Shown in pieces: positions 2,454 to 64,000 of a DNA stretch of 64,000 nucleotides; position 1 is the first letter of the stretch, and each line of letters starts with the position of its first letter. The stretch is from Bacteroidota bacterium (GTDB taxonomy: Bacteria; Bacteroidota; Bacteroidia; SXHM01). The stretch is taken from NCBI GenBank assembly GCA_947479755.1, contig CANKAM010000015.1, positions 4,441 to 68,440 of the forward strand. The letters are read 5' to 3'. The translations under genes and the position numbers were made by a program. The notes beneath the pieces are model-generated. The model saw nothing but the letters and a program-made list of their open reading frames with translations. It ran no database searches and was not told the origin of the DNA.

Positions 2454-2457
2454 AACC

Positions 2458-2548
2458 CGTCATTGCGAGGAAGCAACGACCGAAGCAATCTCCTGATTAA
2501 ACTACTGCATATTATAATGAGATTGCTTCGCTATCGCTCGCAATGACG
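2458..2548. repeat. Nested imperfect palindromic intergenic element (terminator-like) between convergent genes
   Basis: The outer stem is cgtcattgcgag (2458-2469) paired with ctcgcaatgacg (2537-2548). The inner stem is cgaagcaatctc (2481-2492) paired with gagattgcttcg (2519-2530). The ends are CGTCA..TGACG, as in the other REP-like elements of this window. Confidence 0.5.
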
Positions 2549-2552
2549 AAAA

Positions 2553-4223
<1,671 letters not shown>

Positions 4224-4255
4224 TTAAAAACACTTATTGAAAGTATATTTGTTGC

Positions 4256-6062: not shown

Positions 6063-6130
6063 TTCGTCACCTTGAACTTGTTTCAGGGTCTTTCTTATAG
6101 AGATGCTGAAACGAGTTCAGCATGACGAAA
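6063..6130. repeat. REP-like nested palindromic element (GTCACCYTGAACTTGTTTCAGGGTC family), copy A
   Basis: The sequence is ttcgtcaccttgaacttgtttcagggtc..gatgctgaaacgagttcagcatgacgaa, which contains two internal hairpins plus outer CGTCA/TGACG arms. It is more than 85% identical to the copy at 7184-7243. Confidence 0.7.
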
Positions 6131-7183: not shown

Positions 7184-7243
7184 ACGTCACCCTGAACTTG
7201 TTTCAGGGTCTTAAAATGAGATGCTGAAACAAGTCAGCAAGAC
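7184..7243. repeat. REP-like nested palindromic element, copy B (direct orientation relative to copy A)
   Basis: The sequence is acgtcaccctgaacttgtttcagggtc..gagatgctgaaacaagtcagcaagacg. Confidence 0.7.
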
Positions 7244-49492: not shown

Positions 49493-50056
49493 GTGCTTAT
49501 TACCCATCCTAAACTAACCAAGCTTCTTCAACAGGCATATTCTGCTGAAAAAGCTGCTGCTTTTGCTTATCAGGGACATGCCGGTTCATTAAAAAATCAG
49601 GATGAAAAAATTCCTGTTCGCCAGATAGAACTTGACGAATGGAAACACCGCGAAGAAGTACTGAAGATAATGAAACAGTATCAAATTCCTGTTTCAAAAA
49701 AGTTTGAAGTTCAGTTTCATGTTATCGGCAAAATTATTTCAGGGAGTTGTTATGTTATCGGCTGGTTTATGCCTTATTACTTTGCGGGCAGATTAGAAAG
49801 CGGAAACGTATGCGAGTATTTTGTGATGATCCATTATTTTCATGAGTTGGGTATTAAGGAGCACGACCAGATACTATATGAAATGGCTATCAAAGAAAAA
49901 GAACACGAAGTTTTTTTTCTTGAAAAAGTAAAGGGAAGTAAGTTGTTGCCTTTCTTTGAAAAGCTGTTCAACTGGGGAAAGAAAAGCAGCTTTAATGATG
50001 TTGATCTGGAAAATAAATTTCCGGCAGAACAATCCGAAAGTTATTGCAAGAAATAA
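49493..50056 (+). CDS. Ferritin-like diiron protein (MiaE/Coq7-like hydroxylase family suspected)
   Basis: It has two E-x-x-H pairs (ELDEWKH.., ..KEKEHE..) in a four-helix pattern. It starts with GTG. The family assignment is tentative. Confidence 0.35.
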   Translation: MLITHPKLTKLLQQAYSAEKAAAFAYQGHAGSLKNQDEKIPVRQIELDEWKHREEVLKIMKQYQIPVSKKFEVQFHVIGKIISGSCYVIGWFMPYYFAGRLESGNVCEYFVMIHYFHELGIKEHDQILYEMAIKEKEHEVFFLEKVKGSKLLPFFEKLFNWGKKSSFNDVDLENKFPAEQSESYCKK

Positions 50057-50058
50057 CA

Positions 50059-50112
50059 CTTCGACAAGCTCAGTGTGACAATACGCTTGGGTCATCCTGA
50101 GCTTGTCGAAGG
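50059..50112. repeat. Imperfect 21-bp-arm inverted repeat (CTTCGACAAGCTCAG-TGTGAC ... GTCATCCTGAGCTTGTCGAAGG) between convergent genes
   Basis: The arms are 50059-50079 and 50091-50112. It is related to the GTCAYCCTGAGC REP family. Confidence 0.6.
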
Positions 50113-50134
50113 AGTGCGGGTGTATTACTATTTT

Positions 50135-51013
50135 TCAGTTTCTCTTATCTGCTCCCCACATCATTTTGTTGCGCAGGGTAGTTATAAAATTATCACCGGG
50201 AAAACGTACCAGACCTAAGGTAAATACACCTCTTGATATCTGAAGTTCAAATGAACTGGGTAAGGTAACCGAGCGTGAGTCCAATGTTGCAAGAAAATTT
50301 TCACTGCGGCTTTCTACTTTTAATTTTACTTTGCTTTTGTTAGAGATAACAAAAGGACGCACCGTTAAACCATGCGGTGCAATGGGAGTAATTACAAAGT
50401 TACCGCAACCGGGACTAAGAATAGGTCCTCCGCAACTGAGTGAATAACCGGTAGAACCTGTTGATGTGGCTATAATTAATCCATCGGCCCAATAGGAGTT
50501 TACAAATTCATCGTCCACCCAGGTATGAATGGTGATCATGCTGGAAGTGTCTTTTTTGGTAACGGTTATTTCATTCAATGCAAAATTATTTTCACCGAAA
50601 TAATCTGTTCCGTTTATAAAACTTACCAACGTACGCTGCTCAATCGAATAGTTTTTCTCAAAAATGTTTTGCAGTGCATGGTTAATATTTTCCTGCGAAA
50701 CACCGGAGAGAAATCCCAGTCTTCCGGTATTAATTCCCAAGACAGGAATTCCTGAACTGCCCACCAATAAAGCACTTTGCAGCAAGGTTCCATCCCCTCC
50801 TATTGAAAACAGAAAATCTACTTTGCCCTCAATATCTTCTTTTGATTCAAAAACTTTTGCGGCTGCAAGTGCAGGAATTTCATTTGGCAATTGTTGATGA
50901 AACTCGCGGTGAATAAAAACCTGAACATTATTTTCTGCCAGTTTTTTCAGTAATTCTGAAAAGCCGGAAAAGAAATCGGAGTTATATTTTTTGCCGTAGA
51001 GCGCAATGTTCAT
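50135..51013 (-). CDS. nadK: NAD(+) kinase
   Basis: It has the GGDGT motif (FSIGGDGTLLQ), NE/D..T. and ..ATSTGSTGYSLSCGGPIL... The length is 292 aa. Confidence 0.9.
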   Translation of the reverse strand: MNIALYGKKYNSDFFSGFSELLKKLAENNVQVFIHREFHQQLPNEIPALAAAKVFESKEDIEGKVDFLFSIGGDGTLLQSALLVGSSGIPVLGINTGRLGFLSGVSQENINHALQNIFEKNYSIEQRTLVSFINGTDYFGENNFALNEITVTKKDTSSMITIHTWVDDEFVNSYWADGLIIATSTGSTGYSLSCGGPILSPGCGNFVITPIAPHGLTVRPFVISNKSKVKLKVESRSENFLATLDSRSVTLPSSFELQISRGVFTLGLVRFPGDNFITTLRNKMMWGADKRN

Positions 51014-51029
51014 GTGTCAAATATAGGAA

Positions 51030-52532
51030 CTATGACTGAAACTTACCTTTCAGCCATTTGTTGTAATTAATAACATCTGTATCGCTGCTGGTGTGCTGCT
51101 CTTCTTTAAGGAATTGAGCAACCTGCTCATTCAGCTTTTTATTCTTTTTAGTAATACCGTTTAGTGCTACATAACGAATGATTTCTATCAACTTCAGTTC
51201 GCGTTTATTTTCTTCGTTTTGTAACAGGTCTTTGTATTCTTTCTTTATCTGTGTGGTGCGGTAATCCAGGAATTCCATATCATCCAGTTCAAGACGGATA
51301 ATCAGTTCGGCAATGGCAATACGGAAACGTAATGAACGGTCTGCATTCTGATAACTCTTGTGCAGAAAAAGTTTGTTCAGGTTTTTTATCGAGTTTCGGT
51401 AATCACCTTTCTCGAAACGGAAGATGGCAAGATTGAGGTACACAAACACTTCGTAGAACGGTGTATTTTTCAGTTGCTCGTTGTTCTCTAATTGTTCAAG
51501 TATTTCAATGGCTTTATCAATATCAATTTTGGAGTAGTTAATCACCAATGAATTGTAGTAGAAGAACAAATACTTATCGTAATGCAAGCTGCCGAACTCT
51601 TCCATTGCAGCCTTCAGCTTTTCGGCATAGGAGAGGCTTTCCTGTATTTTTCCGTTTTTAAACAAGGTGTTCACGCTGTAGGTAAGCATCTGCAATTTGG
51701 TAAGATGATTCCCTTTGTTGAACAAATGCTCTTCTGTAAACTGGTTGTAGGTTGTTAAAAGATAATCTTCCAGGTTTTTATAATCATGGCGTTGTAACAA
51801 TACCTGACTAACAGCCTGATAAATTTTAAAACGAAGGGCAGGACTTTTTTTCAATTCATTGTCGTGCGAAAAATCATCAACCGTTTTGCTCAGCATTTCA
51901 ACAACGGGATTTTCGCCCGGTGAGAAATTTTGTGTTATTTTCAGTTTGTACTTTACTGCTGCCAGAATATCATCAATCTGTCGAATATCGTGCAGGCGAA
52001 CACTGTTTTCTTTGCGCAGTTTAATATAGGTTTCGGGGTTGATGGAAACCATCTCATGCGAAAGTTTGATGTATTCGCTGTAGATAATATCCAGCAACTC
52101 GTAGTTTTCCTGTGCTGTAGCTTTCTTCTCGGCCTTGCGGATAAAATGATACGCAACCGGGTAATTGTTGCGGTTAAAAAATAAATACGCCAGTGAAATT
52201 AATTGCAGGGTGTTAGATGCTTCGTCTTCGCCAAAATGCTGAAGCATTAAACTCTTGTTTACTTCTTCGGTCATCCGGTTCTTTAAACGGTAGAACGAAT
52301 TTTTTTCACCATCGGGATAAAGCTTCAGCGCTGCTTTATCTTCATCATAAGCTTCGCCTTTTTTGCGGATGTAATCAAAGAGCACCACATCTTTACGATC
52401 GCCTTCGGCAGTGTTGCGCGAAATATAGATTTTGAAGAACCGCAGTTCTTCTTTGGTCATGCTTTCTATAATACGGTTGATAATATCCACGGGTGCTAAA
52501 TTAAAAAAGAAAACTCCGCCATGCGAATGCAT
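51030..52532 (-). CDS. Hypothetical 500-aa all-alpha (TPR-like) protein immediately upstream of nadK
   Basis: It has no recognisable catalytic motif. It is Lys/Glu/Tyr-rich and helical, and lies 16 bp from nadK on the same strand. Confidence 0.35.
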   Translation of the reverse strand: MHSHGGVFFFNLAPVDIINRIIESMTKEELRFFKIYISRNTAEGDRKDVVLFDYIRKKGEAYDEDKAALKLYPDGEKNSFYRLKNRMTEEVNKSLMLQHFGEDEASNTLQLISLAYLFFNRNNYPVAYHFIRKAEKKATAQENYELLDIIYSEYIKLSHEMVSINPETYIKLRKENSVRLHDIRQIDDILAAVKYKLKITQNFSPGENPVVEMLSKTVDDFSHDNELKKSPALRFKIYQAVSQVLLQRHDYKNLEDYLLTTYNQFTEEHLFNKGNHLTKLQMLTYSVNTLFKNGKIQESLSYAEKLKAAMEEFGSLHYDKYLFFYYNSLVINYSKIDIDKAIEILEQLENNEQLKNTPFYEVFVYLNLAIFRFEKGDYRNSIKNLNKLFLHKSYQNADRSLRFRIAIAELIIRLELDDMEFLDYRTTQIKKEYKDLLQNEENKRELKLIEIIRYVALNGITKKNKKLNEQVAQFLKEEQHTSSDTDVINYNKWLKGKFQS

Positions 52533-52569
52533 AACGGAGCTTTCTTCACTCTAAAACCCACGTTGCCGT

Positions 52570-53133
52570 TTACTTCTGCGGAGGCAACAACACCGCATCA
52601 ATCACATATACCATACCGTTTGAAGCTTGAACAGCACCAAGTATATTGGCTCCGTTAATCTGCTTTTTTCCGTCTTTAATGGTAATGGTTGCTTTTCCAC
52701 CGTTAACCATTCCAAGCACCATTCCGTCTTTCAGATAATCTTCACGAAGAGCGCTGGTTGTTACATGGTACTCGAGAATGTTGGTTAAATCTTTTTTTGC
52801 TTCCGGTTTCAGCAAACCTTCTACGGTTCCTGCAGGCAAAGCATCAAACGCTGTGTTAACCGGAGCGAATACTGTAAACGGTCCTGCATTGGAAAGCACA
52901 TCAACCAAACCTGCAGCCTGAACTGCTGCAACCAGGGTTGTATGATCAGGTGAGCCAACTGCAACTTTTACAACGTCTTTTTGAGACATGTCGTCTTTAA
53001 CGGCAGATTGTCCTGCAAGCGGAGCACCTTGCTCACTGGTTGCTGATGTTGCTGCATTTTCATCGGGTGAACTGCAGGCGGCTACAAAAAAGCCTAATGC
53101 AATAATTTTTGTGATGGAAGAAATTGTTTTCAT
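52570..53133 (-). CDS. Fasciclin (FAS1) domain lipoprotein
   Basis: It has a lipobox (..LGFFVAACSS) and the FAS1 blocks ..GPFTVFAPVNTAFDALPAGTV.. and ..NGMVYVIDAVLLP. The ORF runs to 53214 and the likely start is MKTISS at 53133. Confidence 0.75.
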   Translation of the reverse strand: MKTISSITKIIALGFFVAACSSPDENAATSATSEQGAPLAGQSAVKDDMSQKDVVKVAVGSPDHTTLVAAVQAAGLVDVLSNAGPFTVFAPVNTAFDALPAGTVEGLLKPEAKKDLTNILEYHVTTSALREDYLKDGMVLGMVNGGKATITIKDGKKQINGANILGAVQASNGMVYVIDAVLLPPQK

Positions 53134-53219
53134 TTTTAAATAGTTTTTATGTTTATGGTTTCGGTGACAAATGTATTTTGCCATAATAACAGCAGTAATG
53201 AGTTTTGTCAGCAAAAAAT

Positions 53220-53244
53220 ATGATAATTATCAATAAAAAGACCT
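53220..53244 (-). promoter_or_regulatory. 25-bp conserved element containing a CRP/FNR-type TGAT-N4-ATCA palindrome, copy 1 (oriented toward the fasciclin gene)
   Basis: The sequence atgataattatcaataaaaagacct is 23/25 identical to the reverse complement of 54369-54393. The palindrome centre lies 51.5 nt from a TAcaTTTG -7 box (53168-53175, minus strand). Confidence 0.55.
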
Positions 53245-53336
53245 TATTGTCTTCTTTTCTTTGTGGCCGAAAAACTTATTGATTTAATTTCAAACAGGAA
53301 AGAAGCTTAACTCATTGATAATATAGAAATAAAAAT

Positions 53337-53798
53337 ATGGCTTACATCTTACAATCCGCTATGTTACTGTGCTGTATTGTTTTCATTGCAACCGGGTGCA
53401 ATGATAGTGCAGAATCAAAAAACAGTTCACCTCTATCAACCGGTAATTTTGTTTCAGAAAAAATAAACGGAAAATATACGGTTGACCGTGCTACATCTGA
53501 AGAGCTGAAAGTGATGGAAAATACAGTGATTAATTTTTCGCTTATGATAAAACGTCAGCCAACTAATCTGGCTGCTTATAATGAGTATGGCAACCTGCTG
53601 CAAAATCATATTGAACGCACCACAAACTATTGCGGTCTTGATAAAAATTCTAAAACCATACTTTGTAACAACCTGAATCTTATAAGTGAGAAAATTCCTG
53701 TGCTACAGCAAAATGATGTTGCTGCCGCAGCACAGGCAAGTAATGAAATCTATTTTCTTTTCTCAAAAATCGATTCTTCGTTTGCATTCCGCAACTAA
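53337..53798 (+). CDS. Hypothetical lipoprotein
   Basis: It has a signal with a Cys (..FIATGCNDS) and is 153 aa. It is upstream of, and co-oriented with, the Rrf2 regulator. Confidence 0.4.
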   Translation: MAYILQSAMLLCCIVFIATGCNDSAESKNSSPLSTGNFVSEKINGKYTVDRATSEELKVMENTVINFSLMIKRQPTNLAAYNEYGNLLQNHIERTTNYCGLDKNSKTILCNNLNLISEKIPVLQQNDVAAAAQASNEIYFLFSKIDSSFAFRN

Positions 53799-53818
53799 TA
53801 AATATTTTTGCAGACATT

Positions 53819-54256
53819 ATGATGTTCTCTAAAAGTTGCGAGTATGCCATTAAAGCAGTACTGCATTTATGTATTCATACCAAAGACGGAAGCAAACTGA
53901 GCATACACGAAATTGCTGAGGCCATAGAATCACCTGAGCCTTTTACGGCAAAAATTCTGCAAACGCTGGTAAAACATAAAATCATTTCATCATCAAAAGG
54001 TCCGGGTGGTGGCTTTTATATTGATAAAAAAGCTAAGCCCATTGTGGTAATGGATATTGTTGAAATCATTGATGGCAAACAGGCTTTTGAACGTTGCGGC
54101 CTTGGTTTAAAAAACTGCGATGCCAGCCACCCCTGCCCTATTCACAATGAATTTACAAGCTATTCAAACAAGCTCAAAAATTTGCTGGAAAAGAAAACCA
54201 TACAAGAGTTTTCGGATAGTATCATAGCAGGTAAATCATTTATATCTAATCTTTAG
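53819..54256 (+). CDS. Rrf2-family transcriptional regulator (NsrR/IscR-like, three-Cys Fe-S ligand set)
   Basis: It has an N-terminal wHTH (SKSCEYAIKAVLHL..) and C-x6-C-x5-C (CGLGLKNCDASHPC) typical of Fe-S-binding Rrf2 regulators. It is immediately upstream of the nos cluster. Confidence 0.8.
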   Translation: MMFSKSCEYAIKAVLHLCIHTKDGSKLSIHEIAEAIESPEPFTAKILQTLVKHKIISSSKGPGGGFYIDKKAKPIVVMDIVEIIDGKQAFERCGLGLKNCDASHPCPIHNEFTSYSNKLKNLLEKKTIQEFSDSIIAGKSFISNL

Positions 54257-54273
54257 TAATTATCTGGCATAAT

Positions 54274-54330
54274 CGTCATGCTGAACTTGTTTCAGCATCT
54301 CTGAGACCCTGAAACAAGTTCAGGGTGACG
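54274..54330. repeat. REP-like nested palindromic element, inverted-orientation copy of the 6063/7184 family
   Basis: The sequence is cgtcatgctgaacttgtttcagcatctctgagaccctgaaacaagttcagggtgacg. Confidence 0.7.
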
Positions 54331-54368
54331 TAGTGCAAACCTGTTTCCTTAATTAATAAAAGATAAAA

Positions 54369-54393
54369 AGGTCTTTTTATTGATATTAATCAT
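54369..54393 (+). promoter_or_regulatory. 25-bp conserved element with TTGAT-ATTA-ATCAT (CRP/FNR-type box), copy 2, upstream of nosC-nosZ
   Basis: The sequence is aggtctttttatTGATattaATCAt. The palindrome centre is 51.5 nt upstream of the -7 box at 54438. Confidence 0.55.
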
Positions 54394-54437
54394 GTTTTTG
54401 CCTGACCAACCTCATTATCTCCCGCTTAAAGAGCGGC

Positions 54438-54445
54438 TACTTTTG
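54438..54445 (+). promoter_or_regulatory. Bacteroidete sigma-A -7 promoter element (TAnnTTTG) for nosC-nosZ
   Basis: TACTTTTG lies 23 nt upstream of the nosC ATG. Confidence 0.5.
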
Positions 54446-54468
54446 TCCCGTAATCAAAAACTATCTAT

Positions 54469-54984
54469 ATGAAAAACTCAATATTTAAACTCATTACAGG
54501 AAGCATACTGGCAACAGCAATTGCACTGATAGCAAGCTGTTCAGGAAATGAAACCACCAACACTTCGGGCACAGCACCTGAAAGCATGATGAACAAACCG
54601 GCAGCTGATAATGGCGAAGGAATTGGAAAATTCAGTGGAGTAACATTAGCAGCATTTGATGCTGCAGTTGCAGCATCGGGTAAAACAGTATTTGAAACCA
54701 AATGCTCTGCCTGCCACAAAATAACAGAACAAAAAATTGTAGGTCCGGGACTAAAAGGCGTAACACAACGCAGGAAGCCAACCTGGATTTTAAATATGAT
54801 TACCAATCCTGAAGAAATGACAAAGAAAGATCCGCAGGCAATGAAACTGCTGGAAGAACACCTTACCCAAATGACGTTCCAGAATGTAACCGATGATGAG
54901 GCAAAAGCCATTCTCGAATACTTGAGAGAAATTGATGGAGCGGGTGGTGACACAGACGATGATAAAACCGATGATAAAGACTAA
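54469..54984 (+). CDS. Lipoprotein mono-haem c-type cytochrome (NosC-like electron donor of clade II NosZ)
   Basis: It has a lipobox (LIASCSG), the haem site CSACHK, and an acidic C-terminal tail. It is immediately upstream of nosZ. Confidence 0.75.
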   Translation: MKNSIFKLITGSILATAIALIASCSGNETTNTSGTAPESMMNKPAADNGEGIGKFSGVTLAAFDAAVAASGKTVFETKCSACHKITEQKIVGPGLKGVTQRRKPTWILNMITNPEEMTKKDPQAMKLLEEHLTQMTFQNVTDDEAKAILEYLREIDGAGGDTDDDKTDDKD

Positions 54985-55023
54985 GAAAAACAATAAATAA
55001 AAACCAATCAAAACCAGTTAACA

Positions 55024-57006
55024 ATGAAAACAATCACATTAAAATCAATTGGAATATTTGCCTCCTGCATAGCAGCGGCAGGTATTATCAGCAGTTGCAA
55101 ACCCAAAAAGGTTGACTCTGCTTTATCCGGTGACGCAGCAGCAAAAGTTTATGTTGCACCCGGAAAATACGATGAGATTTACTTGTTTACCTCAGGCGGC
55201 TTCAGCGGACAGGTAGGCGTTTATGGTATTCCATCAGGACGCATGCTCAAACAGGTTCCTGTATTTTCTATGGATGCAGAAACAGGCTGGGGATACAGCG
55301 AAGAAACAAAACCAATGCTGATGACCTCACATGGTTTTGTTCCATGGGATGATAGTCACCACCCGCAACTTTCACGCACCGAAGGGCAGGATGACGGACG
55401 TTGGTTATTTATTAATGCCAACAACACTCCGCGTATTGCACGTTTAGACTTAGGTGTTTTTAAAACACGCGAAATTATTGAGTTGCCTAATACAGGTGGA
55501 AACCATGCTTCGCCTTTCACTACTCAGAATACCGAGTATGTAGTTGGCGCATCACGTTTTTCTGTTCCTTACGACAAACAAGGTGACGAAGCAATTGCCG
55601 AGTATAAAGACAAATTCAAAGGCACCATTTCTTTCATTAAAGTGGACAAAGAGACAGGAAGAATGAATCTTAATTTTCAGTTGCTGGTTCCCGGAGTTGA
55701 CTACGATTTGGCTCGTGCAGGTAAAGCAGTTTCTGACGGATGGGTGTTTTTCAGCTGCTATAACAGCGAAAAAGCGCACTCCTTATTAGAAGTAAATGCT
55801 TCGCAACGCGATAAAGATTTTATAATGGCGGTGAACTGGAAAAAAGCAGAAGAATATCTGGCAGCCGGTAAAGGACAAAAATGGTCTGCTAATTATGCAC
55901 ACAATGTGTATGACGAAAAAACACATACAGCAACAACTACTATGGAAAAAGAAGTTACTGTGTTGGATGTAAAAGATTTGCCGGGAGTATGTTATTTTAT
56001 TCCTTGTCCTAAATCACCACATGGTTGCGATGTTGACCCTACAGGCGAATATATCTGCGCATCAGGTAAACTGGCTGCTGTAATTCCGGTTTATTCATTC
56101 AGCAAAATGATAAAAGCGATTGAAGCAAAAGACTTTGAAGGAGATTATGACGGAGTTCCTGTAATAAAATACGAAGCTGCTCTTGATGGTGAAGTTGAGC
56201 GTCCGGGACTTGGTCCGCTACACACTGAGTTTGACGCAAACGGAAATGCTTACACATCATTCTTCGTTTCTTCAGAAATTGTGAAATGGAATGTTAAAAC
56301 CAAACAGGTTATTGATCGCGTTCCTACTTACTATTCAATCGGTCACCTTTGTGTGCCAATGGGCGATAACATTACTCCTTACGGAAAGTATGTAATTGCA
56401 TTGAATAAAATTACCAAAGACCGTTACCTGCCTACCGGTCCTGAGTTAACACAATCAGCGCAGTTGTATTCTATTGAAGGCGAAAAAATGCAATTGTTGC
56501 TTGACTTCCCTACTATCGGTGAGCCGCACTATGCTCAGGCTTGTCCTGCAGAGATTGTGCGCAAACACGAAGTGAAGTTTTATAAACTGGAAGAAAACAA
56601 CCATGCTTATGTTGCAAAAAATGAGAAAGACGCAAAAGTTGTGCGCAACGGCAACGATGTGCATATTTATGCAACAGCTATCCGTTCACACTTTACACCT
56701 GATAATATTGAAGGTGTTAAAGTTGGCGACAATGTATATTTCCACCTTACCAATCTTGAACAGGATTGGGATGTACCACATGGATTTTCAATTAAAGGTG
56801 CTAACAATTCAGAGTTGTTGATACTGCCGGGCGAAACACAAACACTGAAATGGGTACCGGACAGAGCAGGTGTATTTCCAATGTATTGCACCGACTTTTG
56901 TTCTGCACTGCATCAGGAAATGCAAGGATACATTCGCGTATCTCCTGCGGGCAGCAATCCAACGTTAAAATACTCAACCGGAGAGGAAGCAGTTTCTGCA
57001 AAATAG
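55024..57006 (+). CDS. nosZ: Sec-dependent (clade II) nitrous-oxide reductase
   Basis: It has a Sec signal rather than Tat, the 7-bladed propeller CuZ region with conserved His blocks, and a C-terminal cupredoxin CuA site (..CTDFCSALHQEM..). The length is 660 aa. Confidence 0.93.
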   Translation: MKTITLKSIGIFASCIAAAGIISSCKPKKVDSALSGDAAAKVYVAPGKYDEIYLFTSGGFSGQVGVYGIPSGRMLKQVPVFSMDAETGWGYSEETKPMLMTSHGFVPWDDSHHPQLSRTEGQDDGRWLFINANNTPRIARLDLGVFKTREIIELPNTGGNHASPFTTQNTEYVVGASRFSVPYDKQGDEAIAEYKDKFKGTISFIKVDKETGRMNLNFQLLVPGVDYDLARAGKAVSDGWVFFSCYNSEKAHSLLEVNASQRDKDFIMAVNWKKAEEYLAAGKGQKWSANYAHNVYDEKTHTATTTMEKEVTVLDVKDLPGVCYFIPCPKSPHGCDVDPTGEYICASGKLAAVIPVYSFSKMIKAIEAKDFEGDYDGVPVIKYEAALDGEVERPGLGPLHTEFDANGNAYTSFFVSSEIVKWNVKTKQVIDRVPTYYSIGHLCVPMGDNITPYGKYVIALNKITKDRYLPTGPELTQSAQLYSIEGEKMQLLLDFPTIGEPHYAQACPAEIVRKHEVKFYKLEENNHAYVAKNEKDAKVVRNGNDVHIYATAIRSHFTPDNIEGVKVGDNVYFHLTNLEQDWDVPHGFSIKGANNSELLILPGETQTLKWVPDRAGVFPMYCTDFCSALHQEMQGYIRVSPAGSNPTLKYSTGEEAVSAK

Positions 57007-57016
57007 GTTGAGCCTT

Positions 57017-57052
57017 GAAAAGGGGAGGGAGGGTTTACCTCCCCTTTTTTTT
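57017..57052 (+). terminator. Rho-independent terminator/attenuator directly after nosZ
   Basis: The sequence aaaaggggagggagggtttacctcccctttttttt is a GC stem followed by a U8 run. Downstream nos accessory genes continue on the same strand. Confidence 0.6.
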
Positions 57053-57073
57053 AACTTTCTAAAAATAAAAATT

Positions 57074-57649
57074 ATGAAAACCATCAAACCTTTTCTTAGG
57101 GTAGTGCTATTGCTATGTGCTGTTGCAATGGTTGCCTCTCTCAAATTTCCGGTATGGAAAATTATTCTTGAAGCACCCCAATACCCTGAAGGGCTAAAAA
57201 TGGAAATTTGGTCAAACAAAATTGCTGGGGATGTTGATAAAATAAATGGGTTAAACCATTACATTGGAATGGGTGTTATTTTGGATGAAAATTTTCCTGA
57301 ACTAAAAATTATTCCTTATTGTGTAGTAATAATGGGGATATTGGGTCTGCTGGTAGCTGCCACAGGAAAAAGATGGGCATTATGGCTCTTTGTTATTTAT
57401 CAATTTATTTTTGGGGCCTGGGGTATGTATCGTTTCTGGTATTGGGAATATGAATATGGACACAATCTTGACCCGCATGCTGCCATAAAAATTGAAGGCA
57501 TGGCTTATCAACCTCCACTATTAGGTTGGAAGCAATTACTAAATTTTGTTGCAGGCTCTTTCCCTGATACCGGTGGTTTACTTGTAATTATTCCATCGGT
57601 TATTATAGTCTTAATATTGCTTTACGAGCAATTCTTCAGAAAAAACTAA
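57074..57649 (+). CDS. NosB-like integral membrane protein of clade II nos clusters
   Basis: It has four or five TM helices, a W/Y-rich region (YRFWYWEYEYGHNLDPH), and lies between nosZ and nosL. The ORF opens at 57008 and the ATG is at 57074. Confidence 0.5.
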   Translation: MKTIKPFLRVVLLLCAVAMVASLKFPVWKIILEAPQYPEGLKMEIWSNKIAGDVDKINGLNHYIGMGVILDENFPELKIIPYCVVIMGILGLLVAATGKRWALWLFVIYQFIFGAWGMYRFWYWEYEYGHNLDPHAAIKIEGMAYQPPLLGWKQLLNFVAGSFPDTGGLLVIIPSVIIVLILLYEQFFRKN

Positions 57650-57676
57650 TTATCTTACCAGCTTAATTCATCAATC

Positions 57677-58108
57677 ATGAGTAAGATTAGTGCGTTCATT
57701 TCAGTTGTATGCATATTTATTGTTTCGTGTTCTACCGAACCACAACCAATTAACTTTGGAAAAGATTTATGCGCACATTGCAGCATGACAATCATGGATA
57801 AGAAATTTGGTGCTGAAATGGTAAACTCAAAAGGAAAAGCATTAAAATTTGATTCAGGTGAATGCATGGTGAACTACATAAATTCAGAAACAAAATTTGA
57901 AGCCGCACAATACCTTATTGTAAATTACACTTCAGAAGGCGAATTGATAAAAGCAGAAGAAGCATTTTTTCTTCATGGAGGCAATGTAAATAGTCCCATG
58001 GGTGGAAATCTTGCTGCATTCAACACCAAAGCAGATGCAGAAAAAATGCAGGCTGAGCTTGGCGGTGATTTGATGTTGTGGAACGATGTTAAGAAAATTG
58101 ACTTTTGA
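57677..58108 (+). CDS. nosL: Copper chaperone lipoprotein NosL
   Basis: It has a lipobox (FIVSCST) and the NosL copper-binding pattern CAHCSM..M. It is about 140 aa. Confidence 0.75.
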   Translation: MSKISAFISVVCIFIVSCSTEPQPINFGKDLCAHCSMTIMDKKFGAEMVNSKGKALKFDSGECMVNYINSETKFEAAQYLIVNYTSEGELIKAEEAFFLHGGNVNSPMGGNLAAFNTKADAEKMQAELGGDLMLWNDVKKIDF

Positions 58109-59343
58109 AAACGCTTGTATTATCTTGTCTCCTGCTTCTTGTCTTCTGCTTCTTTTCCGAAGCAAAAACAATTGTGGTCTGTCCCGATTGCAAGGTAAAA
58201 CAACTAACCGAAGCACTTGATTTAGCTGCTGATTACGACACCATTCTTATAAAAAAAGGCATCTACAGTTCGGTAAACACCGAAATAAAAAAGCAGGTTG
58301 TTATTATGGGAGAGAACTACCCAATAATTGACGGACAAGAAAAAGATGAAGTGCTGGTAGTGAAAGCAGATAACGTTACCCTTTCGGGTCTATGGGTAAA
58401 AAACTCTAAACGTGGGAGCATGAAAGATTACGCGGGAATAAGAGTAGTTGATTCGCGCAACGTGAAAATAATTAACTGCAAACTAGAGAATACTTTTTTC
58501 GGAATATACCTTGCTAATTCTAAGAACTGCCTGATAAGCGGCAACCACAGCAAAGGTGCTAACTACGGCAAGAGCGATACCGGAAACGGTGTTCAGTTAT
58601 GGAAATGCGACAGTATCACAATTGAGAACAACCACATGGAAGGACACCGTGATGGTATCTATTTTGAGTTTGCGCATTTTTGTTTGATTGAAAAGAACCT
58701 TTGCGAAAAAAATTTCCGCTATGGTTTGCACTTCATGTTTTCAGACAGTGATATATACCGTCAAAATACTTTTCAGAATAACGGAACAGGTGTAGCTGTG
58801 ATGTACACTAAAAACGTTGAAATGTATGACAACATTTTTCGAAATAACTGGGGCGATGCGGCATACGGTTTGCTTTTAAAAGATATCAGCAACAGCATTA
58901 TTGAAAGGAATACATTTACCAATAACACCGTTGGTGTAACCATGGAAGGTTCAAACAGGATAACCTTTTCTAAAAACAATTTTGCTTCCAACGGTTATGC
59001 ATTGAAGGTCATGGCAAACTGCATTGGTGATACATTTATGTATAATAATTTTACGGCAAACACCTTTGATGCTGCCACCAATGGCGAGCTGCGCGAAAAC
59101 AGTTTCAAGTATAATTACTGGGATAAATACGAGGGCTATGATTTAAACCGTGATAAAATCGGTGACATTCCCTTTCGCCCCGTAAGTCTTTATTCCATGA
59201 TAATTGAGCAAATGCCTTATGCCGTAATGCTTCTGCGTAGTTTTACGGTTGAAATTTTAAACCGTGCTGAAAAAAGTATTCCCGGAATTGTTCCCGAAAC
59301 ATTTCAGGATTATGAACCCATGATGAAACCAAACGTTTTATGA
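58105..59343 (+). CDS. nosD: Nitrous-oxide reductase maturation protein NosD (periplasmic right-handed beta-helix)
   Basis: It has parallel beta-helix repeats (..NN.I.N... many times). It is 412 aa and overlaps nosL and nosF by 4 nt each. Confidence 0.88.
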   Translation: MKTLVLSCLLLLVFCFFSEAKTIVVCPDCKVKQLTEALDLAADYDTILIKKGIYSSVNTEIKKQVVIMGENYPIIDGQEKDEVLVVKADNVTLSGLWVKNSKRGSMKDYAGIRVVDSRNVKIINCKLENTFFGIYLANSKNCLISGNHSKGANYGKSDTGNGVQLWKCDSITIENNHMEGHRDGIYFEFAHFCLIEKNLCEKNFRYGLHFMFSDSDIYRQNTFQNNGTGVAVMYTKNVEMYDNIFRNNWGDAAYGLLLKDISNSIIERNTFTNNTVGVTMEGSNRITFSKNNFASNGYALKVMANCIGDTFMYNNFTANTFDAATNGELRENSFKYNYWDKYEGYDLNRDKIGDIPFRPVSLYSMIIEQMPYAVMLLRSFTVEILNRAEKSIPGIVPETFQDYEPMMKPNVL

Positions 59344-60053
59344 TTCGAACCGAACGACTGGAAAAAAGTTTTGGTAAACTACATGTTCTGAAAGGGATTG
59401 ATGTTGAATTTAAAGCAGGACAGGTGGTGAGTGTTATCGGACACAACGGTTCCGGAAAAACCACGCTTATCAAATGTATTCTGGGAATGGTGCTGGCAGA
59501 TAAAGGCAACATCTATGTTGACGAAAAAAGTATTGCAGGAGATTTTCGCTACCGCGAAAACATCGGCTATATGCCGCAAATAGGGCATTATCCTGAGAAC
59601 ATGAAAATCGGGCAGATATTCAGGATGATGAAAGACCTGCGTAAAAATGCAGACGTGCTGGATGAAAGTTTAATGGAAGAATACAAACTTTCTGAACTTT
59701 TTGAAAAACCAATGCACGCCCTTTCGGGAGGAACAACACAGAAAGTAAGTGCATCACTTGCATTTTTATTTAATCCCAAGGTGCTGATTTTAGATGAACC
59801 CACAGCAGGACTTGACCCTTTGGCTGCTGAGATTTTAAAAACAAAAATTATAGAAGCAAAGAGTAAAGGAAAGCTGGTTATCATTACCTCACACATTATG
59901 AGTGAGGTAGAAGAAATGGCGGATACTGTAATGTATTTGTATGAAGGGAAAGTGAATTTCTACAATTCAGTTACCGAATTAAAAAAACAAACCGGTGAAG
60001 AAAAAGTCGGAAAAGCAATTGCTAAAATCATGAAAGAATCAGCGCATGTTTAA
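59340..60053 (+). CDS. nosF: ABC transporter ATP-binding protein NosF
   Basis: It has Walker A (GHNGSGKTT), the signature LSGGTTQK, and Walker B (LILDEPT). Confidence 0.88.
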   Translation: MIRTERLEKSFGKLHVLKGIDVEFKAGQVVSVIGHNGSGKTTLIKCILGMVLADKGNIYVDEKSIAGDFRYRENIGYMPQIGHYPENMKIGQIFRMMKDLRKNADVLDESLMEEYKLSELFEKPMHALSGGTTQKVSASLAFLFNPKVLILDEPTAGLDPLAAEILKTKIIEAKSKGKLVIITSHIMSEVEEMADTVMYLYEGKVNFYNSVTELKKQTGEEKVGKAIAKIMKESAHV

Positions 60054-60813
60054 GATAGCAAAATATGTGATGTATGATATTTTGCGCAGCAAAGTATTGA
60101 TTGCTTATTCCCTGTTTCTGTTGCTCGTTTCATTCAGCCTATTCAGCATGGAAGAGAACAGCTCAAAGAGCCTGATAAGTCTGATGAGTGTGGTGATGAT
60201 TATTGTTCCGCTGGTAAGCATTATTTTTTCAACAACGTATTTCTATAATGCTTATCAGTTTATAGAATTACTGGTGGCTCAACCTATAAGTCGCAGCTCA
60301 ATTTTGCTGGGCGAATTTTTAGGTGTTTCCGTTTCATTGCTTACTGCATTGCTGATAGGAGTTGGAATTCCTGTTCTGATTTATGCACCCGACTCAACAG
60401 GTTTCGTATTAATGATTTCAGGTTTTGCACTGACGCTTTCGTTTATATCATTGGCATTTTTCTCTTCTGTTGCCATGCGCGACAAAGCAAAAGGTATTGG
60501 CATGTCACTGATGCTGTGGTTTTATTTTTCGGTGATTTATGACGGACTTGTTTTAGGAATTCTCTTTTCGTTCAATGAATATCCGTTAGAGAAAGCTGTG
60601 ATTGCACTGGCATCCTTCAACCCTATTGATCTGGGCAGAATAATTATTCTGATGAAGATGGATATTTCAGCATTGATGGGACTGACAGGTGCCGTTTATA
60701 AACAGTTTTTCGGAAGTAGTTTTGGTATCATTTACAGTCTTTCCATTATGTTGATGTGGATTATTACCCCGCTTTTGATTGCATTGCGTATTTTCAAGAA
60801 AAAGAACTTATAG
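60046..60813 (+). CDS. nosY: ABC-2 type permease NosY
   Basis: It has six TM helices and follows nosF with an 8-nt overlap. Confidence 0.8.
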   Translation: MFKIAKYVMYDILRSKVLIAYSLFLLLVSFSLFSMEENSSKSLISLMSVVMIIVPLVSIIFSTTYFYNAYQFIELLVAQPISRSSILLGEFLGVSVSLLTALLIGVGIPVLIYAPDSTGFVLMISGFALTLSFISLAFFSSVAMRDKAKGIGMSLMLWFYFSVIYDGLVLGILFSFNEYPLEKAVIALASFNPIDLGRIIILMKMDISALMGLTGAVYKQFFGSSFGIIYSLSIMLMWIITPLLIALRIFKKKNL

Positions 60814-60995
60814 CATTCTGCAGCATGCAGTTATAGGTCATAAGAGCGCTAACCTCTTCCATTTCCTGATTAAAATCATTGTTAAATCTGAGGCTGACAT
60901 TTGGAAGGATCCCAAGAAAACCCTAGTATTACAAATGTTCAATTTAGCACTGAACCCGCCATTTTGCCAAACTGCTGTTAGCCGTTCGGTTTTTA

Positions 60996-62348
60996 TTAAT
61001 GTTTTATGAATTTTGCTGTTTTAGAATTTCCATTTTCATTTAATTTAATAATATAAACACCGTTTGTTAAATTAGAAATGTCTATAATAAAATCATTTGA
61101 ATTCATTTTTTTAGTGAACACTATCTGACCAACTGAATTGTAAATAGTTATGAGGGATTCATCTTTTAAAATTAAATTAATAAAATCTTTAGCTGGATTT
61201 GGATAAAAAATGATACTATTATTATTTACTATTTGTTCAGAAATACCTAAAACAGTAGAAGTATTCCAATACACATTTGTGTCATCTGCAAATCCTTGAA
61301 TAATGATATCTTTTAGTCCATCTCCATTAAAATCGGCTATGACACAATCGGCAATATATTCACCTCCCAAAATTTGGGTTTGAACAAAAGTATTATTACC
61401 ATCATTTCTATAAACTATATTGAAAATATTCGGCAAACCACCAGCTTGACTACCCACTATTAATAAGTCTTGGTCTCCATCGTTATCCAAATCTGCAAAG
61501 GCATTTTTTCCAGCAAAAGTTTGTTGAAGATTGGTGGAAATAGATGAAAAAAGTCCTGCTCCATTATTGATGTATAATAAATTTTGAGTATTGCCATTGA
61601 TAATTAAATCTAAATCTCCATCATTATCTGTATCAGCCACTTCAATACCTTCAGCAGAAATTGCTGGGAATGTTGTATTTATGTTTAAAGTATATACCCC
61701 AGAACCATTATTTTGATATAATTTAATGGTATTTGAACCAGAAATAATAACATCTTGGTCTCCATCGTTTTCAATATCAATAATTTGTACAATTCCATCT
61801 ACTGGAGTAAAAACGGAGTTTCCTTGTGGCGTGAAAACTGCATTTCCGTTGTTAAGGTAAATATCAGAAATTGTAGCAGTTGTAATAACCAAGTCTTGGT
61901 CACCATCATTGTCCACATCAGCAATAGCAGCTCCTTCAATAAATACAGGCAAATTATTAGGTACTTGTGTAAAATTTCCCAAGCCATCATTTCTATAAAT
62001 ATTTGCAAATTTTTGGGCAAGTTCATTCTGTCCAGAGAAAAACAAGTCTAAATCTCCATCACCATCTAAATCTTTAAAAAATGCTTGGCTATTTCCTGAA
62101 CGAGGAAAATTATGAGTTACCTCTGTGAAATTTCCAGTTCCATCGTTTTTATAAAGTTTCGTCCAAGGACCTATTCGAGTCATCAATAAGTCTAAGTCTC
62201 CGTCTCCATCTATATCTCCACTTGCAAATATTCCGCCATAACCCTCCATTATGTTAGGCTGTGGATTTGCTAAAGTGAAATTTAATGTTTGACTGTAGCC
62301 ATTTATACAAATTAGTATAATGGTCTGAATTAATAAAATTTGTCTCAT
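60996..62348 (-). CDS. FG-GAP/VCBS-repeat (integrin-alpha-like beta-propeller) protein with T9SS C-terminal sorting domain; AT-rich gene
   Basis: It has a signal peptide, at least seven D.DGDGD.D calcium-binding FG-GAP loops, and the CTD ..IFYPNPAKDFINL..GVYIIKLNENGNSKTAKFIKH. Its GC content is visibly much lower than that of the flanks. Confidence 0.7.
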   Translation of the reverse strand: MRQILLIQTIILICINGYSQTLNFTLANPQPNIMEGYGGIFASGDIDGDGDLDLLMTRIGPWTKLYKNDGTGNFTEVTHNFPRSGNSQAFFKDLDGDGDLDLFFSGQNELAQKFANIYRNDGLGNFTQVPNNLPVFIEGAAIADVDNDGDQDLVITTATISDIYLNNGNAVFTPQGNSVFTPVDGIVQIIDIENDGDQDVIISGSNTIKLYQNNGSGVYTLNINTTFPAISAEGIEVADTDNDGDLDLIINGNTQNLLYINNGAGLFSSISTNLQQTFAGKNAFADLDNDGDQDLLIVGSQAGGLPNIFNIVYRNDGNNTFVQTQILGGEYIADCVIADFNGDGLKDIIIQGFADDTNVYWNTSTVLGISEQIVNNNSIIFYPNPAKDFINLILKDESLITIYNSVGQIVFTKKMNSNDFIIDISNLTNGVYIIKLNENGNSKTAKFIKH

Positions 62349-62389
62349 ATATTTTGTATTAAATTGTTATTTTAGTTTATTAAATTCTC

Positions 62390-64000
62390 ACACGTTTCGC
62401 CAAACTGACGGCTAACGTCAGTTCGTCTAAGAACTCCGTTTCGCCCTCAAATATAAATCAATTTAAAGCGATTAGCCGGAGGCTGAAAAATACTTTTGTG
62501 TAAAGTGTTTGAAAAAATAGCGTTCGTTATTTTGAAGCAAATCGCGTTTATAACAAGGTTTATTTGAGAAAATAAAGAGCCAAGTTCTTTGAGGAACTTT
62601 TTAAGCACATCCTGCCCTACAATATTGAAAATCCTGCGCAGGTTGTAGGCGATAAATATAAATCCTACATCAGCGCTGGCGCGTTTCATACCTTTTTTTG
62701 TCATGATGTAGTAGAAACCCCATTGTCGTTTGATAACACCGTAAGGGTGTTCTACAATGGCTTGCCGCTTTTTGTAGAGTTGTGGATTAGCATCAATGTT
62801 TGTTTTGTTCTGTTCAATGTATTCAGCGTATTGACTGCGCTCTATGAGCCTGCCCTCCGGGTTGCGAGTGCATAAGTTTCTGGCGGGGCAGGTTTCGCAG
62901 GCGTTGGTTTTATAGTGTTTTACTAATGTAACAGACTTGCCCCTGTTTTTCTTGTACCAACTTCCGTTGGTAACTAAAACCTGTTGCTGCGGACAGGTAT
63001 AAGTGTCTTTCTCTTTGTCATAAATAAAGTTCACCACATCGTAGTTTAAGTCTGGTGCGTGCGAACCGGTTTCGGGTATGGCTACCATTACCTGCACACC
63101 TATTTTATTGGCTGTTTCAAATTCACTTCCGGTGTGGTAGCCTTTATCATAGAGAGCAGTAAATTCATTGGTTTGTAAAATCACTTTACTTCTGCGCAGC
63201 ATGCCGCCCATTGCTTTGCTGTCGTTCTGATTGGTTACTTTATAATCAATAGGAATACAGTGTTGAGCATCCACTACTGTCTGCACATTGTAGGCTACTT
63301 CGGTAATGGTGTTTCGGGTAATGAGTTGCCGGCTTTCAGGGTCAGATGTTGAAATCTGTACTTCGCCTGTTGCTTCCAATTGCTGCTGCATAGCCTGGTA
63401 TTTGGCTTTGCGCCCTTCATGCTTTTTTATTTCTTTTTCAATAATCTTTTTGTTGTCGTTATCTGCTGTGCTCAATGCTCTGTTGTATTCATCCAGCTTT
63501 GCTTCAATGTAGGCTTGGTGCTTTTCAATTTTGCGTGGAGTAAAATTATTCTTCTTGCTGTTTTGCGCACGCAACTTGGTGCTGTCACCGGCAACGAGTA
63601 TGCCGCCAATGAGTTTAAACTCGCGTGCCAGACTTACGGTGTGGCGAAACACTTTACGGATTGCTTTTTCATTATCGCGCCTGAAGTTGGAGATGGTGTT
63701 GTGATCTGGAACCAGTTGTTTCATCAGCCACATTACTTCAATGTTGCGTTTGCATTCTTTTTCTAAAGCCCTGCTTGAACGGATGCTGTTGAGATAACCG
63801 TACACATACAACTTCAATAAATCTTTCGGGTGATAAGCAGGTCTGCCTTCGGCAGTGGTTTTAATCACAAACTTAAAGTCGGTGATGTTGATGCTTTCAA
63901 CAAATAGATCAATGATGCGTACTTCGTTATCGTCTGCAACAATTCCGTCCAGGTTGTCGGTGAATAGAACGCTTTGTTCTCTGTCTTGTCCTTGTATAAA
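62390..64000 (-). mobile_element. Partial IS1182-family insertion sequence (left end near 62390-62446, right end outside the window)
   Basis: It contains the transposase CDS above. A terminal palindromic motif ctgacggctaacgtcag sits at 62407-62423, just beyond the transposase stop. Confidence 0.6.
62447..64000 (-). CDS. IS1182-family (IS5 superfamily) DDE transposase, N-terminus beyond the window edge
   Basis: The frame stays open to position 64000. It encodes ..QGQDREQSVLFTDNLDGIVADDNEVRIIDLFVE.. followed by ..GRPAYHPKDLLKLYVYGYLN.., typical of IS1182 transposases, and has a Cys-rich insertion domain. Confidence 0.85.
   Translation of the reverse strand, partial: FIQGQDREQSVLFTDNLDGIVADDNEVRIIDLFVESINITDFKFVIKTTAEGRPAYHPKDLLKLYVYGYLNSIRSSRALEKECKRNIEVMWLMKQLVPDHNTISNFRRDNEKAIRKVFRHTVSLAREFKLIGGILVAGDSTKLRAQNSKKNNFTPRKIEKHQAYIEAKLDEYNRALSTADNDNKKIIEKEIKKHEGRKAKYQAMQQQLEATGEVQISTSDPESRQLITRNTITEVAYNVQTVVDAQHCIPIDYKVTNQNDSKAMGGMLRRSKVILQTNEFTALYDKGYHTGSEFETANKIGVQVMVAIPETGSHAPDLNYDVVNFIYDKEKDTYTCPQQQVLVTNGSWYKKNRGKSVTLVKHYKTNACETCPARNLCTRNPEGRLIERSQYAEYIEQNKTNIDANPQLYKKRQAIVEHPYGVIKRQWGFYYIMTKKGMKRASADVGFIFIAYNLRRIFNIVGQDVLKKFLKELGSLFSQINLVINAICFKITNAIFSNTLHKSIFQPPANRFKLIYI

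Follow-up and report, generated by a model that had tools for sequence, protein, structure and literature searches.

A duplicated composite promoter element upstream of the nosC-nosZ operon and a fasciclin lipoprotein gene in a Bacteroidota nos locus, with a predicted CRP/FNR-type activator box and a candidate Rrf2 operator

The DNA analysed here, referred to as the window, is a stretch of 64,000 nucleotides from a Bacteroidota bacterium (GenBank assembly GCA_947479755.1, contig CANKAM010000015.1, positions 4,441 to 68,440 of the forward strand). It carries a nos operon for nitrous oxide (N2O) reductase, a gene for a fasciclin-domain lipoprotein (fas) on the opposite strand and, between the two, genes for a second lipoprotein and an Rrf2-family regulator. 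Upstream of both fas and nosC lies a copy of the same composite element, made up of a palindrome, two FNR-like boxes (box 1 and box 2) and a -7 box of the Bacteroidetes type, which is interpreted below as a duplicated promoter with a predicted activator site and a candidate Rrf2 operator. The features of the locus, in order along the window (lengths of proteins in amino acids, aa), are:

52570-53133, minus strand: gene for the fasciclin-domain lipoprotein, 187 aa, signal peptide with lipobox VAAC (Pfam Fasciclin, E=2.1e-30).
53168-53175, minus strand: predicted -7 box of the fasciclin promoter, TACATTTG, fitting TAnnTTTG and placed at the phylum-wide offset from box 2.
53198-53211, minus strand: box 2 of the fasciclin promoter, CTGACAAAACTCAT, in the geometry of 52 nosC and 21 fas promoters; 0.4 bits with the type-A matrix.
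53220-53233, no strand assigned: box 1, left copy, ATGATAATTATCAA, 9/10 to TTGAT-N4-ATCAA and 29.5 nt from the plus-strand -7-like box at 53256.
53236-53255, no strand assigned: palindrome, left copy, AAAAGAC-CTTATT-GTCTTCT, 13/14 arm positions, candidate Rrf2 operator.
53256-53263, plus strand: candidate -7 box of the lipoprotein-Rrf2 operon, TTTCTTTG, 5/6 positions, proposed from its offset and conservation.
53337-53798, plus strand: gene for a 153-aa lipoprotein upstream of the Rrf2 gene, no Pfam or NCBIfam match.
53819-54256, plus strand: gene for the Rrf2-family regulator with Cys3-His cluster ligands (Pfam Rrf2, E=1.5e-26).
54268-54336, plus strand: hairpin like a repetitive extragenic palindrome (REP-like) between the Rrf2 gene and the nosC promoter, -35.2 kcal/mol, z=-6.6.
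54358-54377, no strand assigned: palindrome, right copy, AAAAGAT-AAAAAG-GTCTTTT, 13/14, candidate Rrf2 operator, kept upstream of nosC in L001-L007 and 12 metagenome loci.
54380-54393, no strand assigned: box 1, right copy, TTGATATTAATCAT, centre 51.5 nt from the -7 box, 9/10 to TTGAT-N4-ATCAA.
54402-54415, plus strand: box 2 of the nosC promoter, CTGACCAACCTCAT, centre 29.5 nt from the -7 box, 4.1 bits.
54438-54445, plus strand: predicted -7 box of the nosC-nosZ operon, TACTTTTG, from sequence and offset.
54469-60813, plus strand: nos operon, with nosC, nosZ, a gene for a 213-aa membrane protein, nosL, nosD, nosF and nosY (Pfam).

For comparison, a query with NosZ gave 80 Bacteroidota nos loci, of which the nearest come from metagenome-assembled genomes of Chitinophagales with 83-98% NosZ identity; where single loci must be told apart they are cited by handle (L001 and so on).

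The 25-mer at 53220-53244 on the plus strand (ATGATAATTATCAATAAAAAGACCT) and the reverse complement of 54369-54393 (ATGATTAATATCAATAAAAAGACCT) were found to be identical at 23 of 25 positions, as a first-pass annotation of this DNA had claimed, and a search of the window that allowed up to three mismatches gave no match besides these two (0 expected from 100 shuffles). A relaxed 20-mer scan of the window returned matches at chance level. The same annotation had correctly placed the -7 boxes on the plus strand at 54438-54445 and on the minus strand at 53175-53168, had measured the same 51.5 nt from each box centre (54386.5 and 53226.5) to the 5' edge of the respective -7 box, had noted that the extension of the box lies on the gene-distal side in both copies, and had recognised between them an Rrf2-type gene, whose product carries the ligand pattern C-X6-C-X5-C-X2-H. 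Both 25-mers contain TGAT-N4-ATCA, which occurs four times in the 64 kb against 1.5 expected, the two others being a match at 51179, within coding sequence, and an orphan at 60867. The orphan box (TGATTAAAATCA, 60867-60878, 11.9 bits on the minus strand) lies just past nosY, where two genes converge. No -7 box stands at the usual distance from it, and L001 and L002 lack it, so that a chance match or a relic is conceivable.

The repeat proved to be larger than first described, with inverted arms of 63 nt at 53196-53258 and 54355-54417 that are identical at 52 of 63 positions. In an alignment of both promoters (A1), taken from the window and from the two relatives closest to it, homology between the fas and nosC promoters extended over ~125 nt and included the -7 boxes and part of the 5' untranslated regions (UTRs), and the ~20-nt spacer ahead of the -7 box was the sole diverged part. 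The spacer from box 2 to the -7 box varies even between near-identical strains, with the boxes and the palindrome unchanged. Judged from this alignment the two promoters are paralogues that arose by inverted duplication of a promoter module in this Chitinophagales lineage, and the equal 51.5-nt geometry is found because the whole promoter was duplicated, not because the arrangement occurred twice independently.

Read from the gene-distal to the gene-proximal side, each copy consists of the 20-bp palindrome (AAAAGAC-N6-GTCTTTT), 2 bp, box 1 (TTGAT-N4-ATCAT), 8 bp, box 2 (the weaker CTGAC-N4-CTCAT), 22 bp and the -7 box TAnnTTTG, with box 1 centred 22 nt upstream of the centre of box 2 and box 2 centred 29.5 nt from the -7 box. 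Box 1 is the box that had been described earlier, as part of one 25-mer site with an asymmetric extension. The FNR-like box of that description is real, but it is the distal one, and the position fixed throughout the phylum is held by the weaker box 2, 22 nt nearer the gene; the extension (ATAAAAAGACCT) does not belong to it but runs on into the palindrome, being the arm of a separate element that co-occurs with Rrf2 genes. Compared with the consensus TTGAT-N4-ATCAA, box 2 agrees at 6/10 positions and box 1 at 9/10 in both copies. The orthologous box 2 reaches 14-15 bits in L007, L003 and L081, and the CTCAT half-site together with all spacings is invariant in the nosC promoters of L001-L007 and, as inspected, in 7 of the 12 metagenome loci with the same architecture. 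The tandem pattern of box 1 and box 2 was retained in every type-C nosC promoter examined.

The housekeeping promoter consensus of Bacteroidetes combines a -7 TAnnTTTG with a -33 TTTG ~19-21 nt upstream. When the -33 TTTG was sought at both promoters it was absent, that region being occupied by box 2, and the missing element is consistent with dependence on an activator. A sigma-70 promoter scan stayed at chance level, the method being uninformative for Bacteroidota, and an Rfam scan of 50000-58000 gave two sub-threshold chance matches to microRNA families and no known RNA element.

Upstream of nosC in almost every one of the 80 loci stands a box of the form TATGAY-N4-RTCATA(A), scoring ~20 bits in most. 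A box-anchored alignment of 52 nosC and 21 fas promoters showed that the -7 box begins 23 nt after the ..CA of the box, that is 29.5 nt from the box centre, and the motif class TATGAY-N4-RTCATA recurs in ~75 promoters of the related loci. An open reading frame (ORF) of the CRP/FNR family (cNMP_binding and HTH_Crp_2, ~197 aa) was identified in 51 of the 80 loci, in 29 of them immediately upstream of nosC and mostly divergent from it. In these nos-linked proteins the recognition helix has the sequence RVETVIR, where E. coli FNR has TVETISR, and the N-terminal Cys cluster of FNR is absent from them. The box also precedes an operon, adjoining the regulator gene, that encodes a ~410-aa membrane protein and a ScdA/hemerythrin (RIC-type) protein. 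Box, regulator genes and ScdA/hemerythrin target together describe, as far as sequence comparison can tell, a regulon of the nitric oxide (NO)/denitrification type, and the earlier suggestion of a denitrification-type FNR-family site is supported by the presence of this motif class before nosC in most of the 80 loci, usually next to a divergent CRP/FNR gene. A metagenome scan with AGGTCTTTTTATTGAYNNNNATCA returned 22 loci, 12 with the same Rrf2-nosC architecture and 10 in unrelated contexts that contain neither box 2 nor the -7 box; the scan revealed no new regulon members such as nir or nor. No description of this nos regulon or of the regulators of Bacteroidetes nos clusters was found in the literature searched.

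The operon of the ~410-aa protein and the ScdA_N-hemerythrin protein, with its second nos box, is located at 3497-5522 in L018 and has equivalents in L033, L036, L047, L051, L080 and others; the ~410-aa protein has no Pfam match, and the loci that harbour it carry a divergent CRP/FNR gene. In L033 the neighbourhood also includes genes for a cytochrome c and for a norB-like protein of the COX1 family.

A homologue of the fasciclin gene is present in 54 of the 80 nos loci, with 49-79% identity outside the closest strains. It directly follows nosZ on the same strand in 17 loci, lies on the opposite strand in 31 and elsewhere on the plus strand in 6, and in the remaining 26 it is not in the fetched DNA. 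Where fas is on the opposite strand, a nos box of 16-22 bits precedes it in most loci, and the distance from this box to a -7 box is the usual one. Co-regulation of fas and nosZ, which had been proposed from the window alone, is well supported by comparison of sequences as a general property of these clusters, because fas has its own nos box where it is transcribed separately and elsewhere directly follows nosZ. No paper tying fasciclin to nosZ, nitrous oxide reductase or denitrification was found in the literature searched.

The palindrome, in turn, occurs together with Rrf2 genes. At a threshold of at least 11/12 positions 27 matches were counted in 1.15 Mb of loci against ~4 expected. A separate count gave 24 in 249 kb of Rrf2 loci compared with 3 in 834 kb of the others. 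In the 300 nt ahead of nosC, at least 12/14 positions were matched by 14 of 17 Rrf2 loci versus 2 of 59 others (Fisher p~1e-10). Its place in the promoter differs with the arrangement of the genes. The Rrf2 operon is preceded by it in the window, L001, L002 and L058 (in the last as a copy before the Rrf2 gene); it abuts box 1 in the lineage of the window; in loci where Rrf2 is divergent from nosC (type B) it stands between the nosC -7 box and the start codon, with a perfect form (AAAAGACATCGATGTCTTTT) in L043; and in L004 and L005 a copy covers the fas -7 box. A position that shifts in this manner is typical of a repressor operator that moves with the promoter architecture. Operators of the Rrf2/NsrR type are recognised as AT-rich palindromes of ~19-23 bp that co-occur with the regulator gene and its own promoter, and both features were found here. 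The pattern as a whole fits the palindrome being a candidate operator of the Rrf2 protein.

Rrf2 genes of type-B loci lie in an operon with a ScdA-like gene, and genes for a PAS kinase and a receiver-CRP fusion are found nearby. The fusion, an unusual one of a receiver joined to a CRP/FNR protein (353 aa), was identified in L023 (in the region 2082-4375) and similarly in L032, L058 and L070, all loci with a divergent Rrf2 gene, and in L023 and L032 it adjoins a PAS-type kinase-like ORF (~411-420 aa); it may be the regulator that acts on the tandem boxes in its loci. In L003 the place of the Rrf2 region ahead of the nosC promoter is taken by a long, near-perfect tandem repeat (5615-5971) with a period of ~36 nt and several open frames, and the palindrome and both boxes are kept.

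The two boxes are exactly 22 nt apart in all Rrf2-linked loci. In seven of eight type-B loci a mirrored (reverse-complement) -7 box was found on the left side of box 1 at a distance of 22-23 nt, which equals the standard offset or differs from it by 1 nt at most, so that the boxes of these loci are predicted to serve two back-to-back promoters. The left copy of the window shows a comparable arrangement, with TTTCTTTG on the plus strand exactly 29.5 nt from the centre of box 1, pointing towards the lipoprotein-Rrf2 operon, and the palindrome filling the spacer. Matches to the -7 consensus at 5/6 or better occupy 0.9% of the positions in the window; this -7-like box is conserved in L001 and L002, and L081 has an analogous arrangement without the palindrome. 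Left box 1 is probably no less a site of the lipoprotein-Rrf2 operon than of the fasciclin gene. The right copy has no mirrored -7 box, and its palindrome and box 1 are still conserved down to 78% NosZ identity, which suggests that right box 1 is an upstream activator site and the palindrome an anti-activation operator for nosC. In this architecture the 153-aa lipoprotein gene is always located directly upstream of Rrf2 (L001, L002, L004-L007 and the metagenome loci), its product being 35-81% identical.

The reading that we favour, with a probability of roughly two in three, is that of a duplicated composite promoter at which a predicted CRP/FNR-type activator drives the nos operon and fas and an Fe-S Rrf2 protein acts at the palindrome. 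The sequences, their geometry and conservation and their association with regulator genes are observed, and from them we infer the pairing of proteins with sites, whether regulation is positive or negative, what signal is sensed and where transcription begins. A dimer of the CRP/FNR family would bind box 2 and act on RNA polymerase as a class-II activator, both at the nosC-nosZ operon and at fas. Box 2 would be centred near -41.5 on the assumption that the transcription start is ~12 nt downstream of the T of the -7 box. The activator would have an FNR-like E--(I/S)R recognition helix, no FNR Cys cluster and a role like that of Dnr/NnrR, and would be encoded elsewhere in this genome. A second dimer would bind box 1, two helical turns upstream, in a cooperative manner, and box 1 of the left copy would double as the class-II site of the divergent lipoprotein-Rrf2 operon. 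The holo form of Rrf2, with its Fe-S cluster, would bind the palindrome as an operator: at its own promoter, where the operator takes up the whole interval from box 1 to the -7-like box, this would lead to autorepression, and at nosC, where it abuts box 1, to anti-activation, so that activation at nosC and fas would be dampened. Loss or modification of the cluster by NO or a redox signal would then relieve repression.

Several observations weigh against this reading. The copies are recent paralogues, so their common geometry is not independent evidence, and the left copy was found in the window, L001 and L002 only. Box 2 of the window scores poorly with the matrix from other lineages (4.1 and 0.4 bits) and was identified only by position and orthology. 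The main weakness is that no CRP/FNR-family ORF was detected in the 64-kb window (jackhmmer; 15-sequence profile, E<=10) and that L001-L007 and the 12 metagenome loci which share its architecture also have no CRP/FNR gene; an FNR-type site calls for a family member in the same genome, and one is present in 51 of the 80 related loci, usually beside the box. The exact composite was found before nosC only and never before nir or nor genes. Since the loci compared in the Fisher test come from two related clades, they are less independent than its p-value implies. Finally, the palindrome could double as a weak hairpin of about -7 kcal/mol.

Absence of a CRP/FNR gene also bears on an alternative in which Rrf2 alone binds the whole 25-mer or the 63-mer (box plus extension) and no CRP/FNR protein takes part in this lineage. 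Rrf2 is the only regulator gene at the locus, neither the window nor the loci of the same architecture containing a CRP/FNR gene, and the 22-nt tandem boxes and the palindrome both co-occur with Rrf2 genes. However, the same boxes are found in the same geometry in ~50 loci with a CRP/FNR gene and without Rrf2, and the position of the palindrome relative to the boxes varies by architecture, as expected of a separate site. Promoters without a -33 element point to an activator, and Fe-S Rrf2 proteins such as NsrR are mostly repressors, which makes this alternative unlikely.

The weak hairpin invites a further alternative, that the palindrome is an element at the RNA level, either a weak intrinsic terminator of the Rrf2 operon or an attenuator. 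Both copies can fold into a hairpin with a run of T behind it (-7.2 and -6.9 kcal/mol; z about -3.2 for the fold), the right copy lies downstream of the Rrf2 gene, and in type-B loci the palindrome is within the nosC 5' UTR. The stems, however, are AT-rich and weak, a hairpin of -35 kcal/mol is already present between Rrf2 and the palindrome, and no gene ends upstream of the left copy or of the copy in L058. A terminator would need no Rrf2 gene in the locus, yet the presence of the palindrome depends on one; with the weakness of the hairpins, this led us to reject the terminator, and the RNA-level reading as a whole is improbable.

Bacteroidota are known for invertible segments, and the 63-nt inverted repeats (83% identical, 1096 nt apart) enclose exactly two genes, with a DDE transposase ~8 kb away (62447-63868) and with Rrf2 divergent from nosC in other lineages, explicable by one inversion; still, the repeats are most improbable as recombination substrates at the ends of a mobile or invertible cassette with the lipoprotein and Rrf2 genes, and this was rejected, since L004-L007 and the 12 metagenome loci keep gene order and orientation with the right copy only, close relatives include no flipped form, no recombinase is adjacent, and the homology does not stop with the repeat but takes in the -7 boxes and 5' UTRs, in register with the promoters.

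With regard to known systems, the Rrf2 protein of the window passed only rrf2_super among the NCBIfam models, scoring 26 bits with the curated NsrR model (cutoff 182) and 60.6 bits with the IscR equivalog model (cutoff 207.55). On its sequence it is an Rrf2-family regulator of the Fe-S type and not demonstrably an orthologue of NsrR. It resembles NsrR of E. coli, Neisseria, Bacillus and Streptomyces in its Rrf2 fold, three Cys ligands and AT-rich palindromic candidate operator at the promoters of nitrogen-oxide genes, in the linkage of Rrf2 genes in sister loci to a ScdA/RIC-type gene and in likely autoregulation, but differs from NsrR, besides the low score, in an IscR-like Cys3-His ligand set and in the nos operon as target. 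The E. coli NsrR site has an 11-1-11 form, which AAAAGAC-N6-GTCTTTT does not appear to match. The best sequence match in the PDB is E. coli IscR (4HF0, 4HF1, 4HF2; E=5.7e-07), with whose C92/C98/C104/H107 the motif C-X6-C-X5-C-X2-H aligns; unlike IscR, however, the protein has no isc or suf genes in its context.

In Proteobacteria the promoters of nir, nor and nos genes carry FNR/Dnr/NnrR boxes with the consensus CTTGATnnnnATCAAG (Rodionov et al. 2005, PMC1274295). The boxes described here share with them the 5-4-5 inverted repeat with a TGA...TCA core, the location upstream of nosZ operons and a predicted CRP/FNR regulator that keeps the Glu and Arg of the FNR helix; their placement would resemble class II near -41.5 if the assumed start is right. 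The outer positions are different, mostly ATGAY/RTCAT instead of TTGAT/ATCAA, as are the nos-linked regulators, which have E--IR and not E--SR, no FNR Cys cluster and no gene near the window locus; the -7 TAnnTTTG promoter of Bacteroidetes and a fasciclin lipoprotein among the targets also set the system apart from those of Proteobacteria. Within Bacteroidota, the FNR-like, NO-responsive HcpR of Bacteroides and Porphyromonas is likewise a case of CRP/FNR-family regulation of nitrosative-stress genes, but for Bacteroides and P. gingivalis hcp is reported as the sole member of its regulon (HcpR2 branch, PMC1274295), and the window locus has no hcp gene. Scaffolds with clade II nos genes from the Cytophaga-Flavobacterium-Bacteroides (CFB) group were reported to be enriched in Rrf2 regulators and occasionally to contain an NnrR-like gene (Calderoli et al. 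2018, PMC6264515); that paper proposed no binding sites, promoter architecture or fasciclin link. The logic of an FNR-family activator and an Fe-S Rrf2 repressor at nitrogen-oxide genes is familiar. What seems not to have been described before is this variant of the motif, the operator, a -7 promoter of the Bacteroidetes type in such a system, and fasciclin as a target. More tentatively, and somewhat short of an even chance, these parts may belong to an undescribed nos regulon common to Bacteroidota clade II N2O reducers, with a CRP/FNR subfamily (E--IR, no Cys cluster), TATGAY-N4-RTCATA at 29.5 nt and fasciclin as a conserved target, onto which a new Fe-S Rrf2 repressor with an operator of its own is layered in some lineages.

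Bacteroidota with clade II nosZ are abundant N2O consumers in soils and wastewater, and on the control of their N2O reductase the literature searched gave only the remark on Rrf2 richness (PMC6264515). The present locus and 92 related ones yield testable cis-elements, namely a predicted activator box with fixed geometry throughout the phylum and a candidate Rrf2 operator. If these are what they seem, nos expression would be predictable from genomes via these elements, the fasciclin lipoprotein would be an unrecognised accessory of N2O respiration, and in lineages with the Rrf2 layer two inputs would together switch what is the main biological sink for N2O in these organisms.

In the nos operon itself, nosC (a cytochrome c gene) covers 54469-54984, nosZ 55024-57006 and the gene for the 213-aa membrane protein 57008-57649, and the Pfam matches are Cytochrom_C, nos_propeller, NosL, NosD, ABC_tran and ABC2_membrane_2. 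The 213-aa protein has no family match; its gene follows nosZ or nosZ-fas in nearly all 80 loci, with 43-93% identity, and it is on this comparative basis a conserved, unnamed component of the nos cluster. Downstream of nosY (60996-63868) are genes for an FG-GAP protein sorted by the type IX secretion system (T9SS) and for a DDE transposase (DUF772/DDE_Tnp_1_6). The genes past nosY differ among each of the close relatives with this flank fetched (L001, L002, L003, L005 and L007), and the flank is therefore rearrangement-prone.

The REP-like hairpin at 54268-54336 is likely a terminator or insulator. The element is dispersed, with further copies at 6071-6121 and 7191-7206 and the core CTGAAACAAGTTCAGG. 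At the same spot L001 has a different palindromic insert and L002 a partial copy, which makes the site look like one where elements of this kind insert repeatedly. A 28-nt inverted repeat (53123-53150 and 55007-55034) was also noted between the start regions of fas and nosZ; its source is the common N-terminal coding sequence, both proteins starting with MKTI..., together with similar ribosome-binding contexts, and it is probably trivial.

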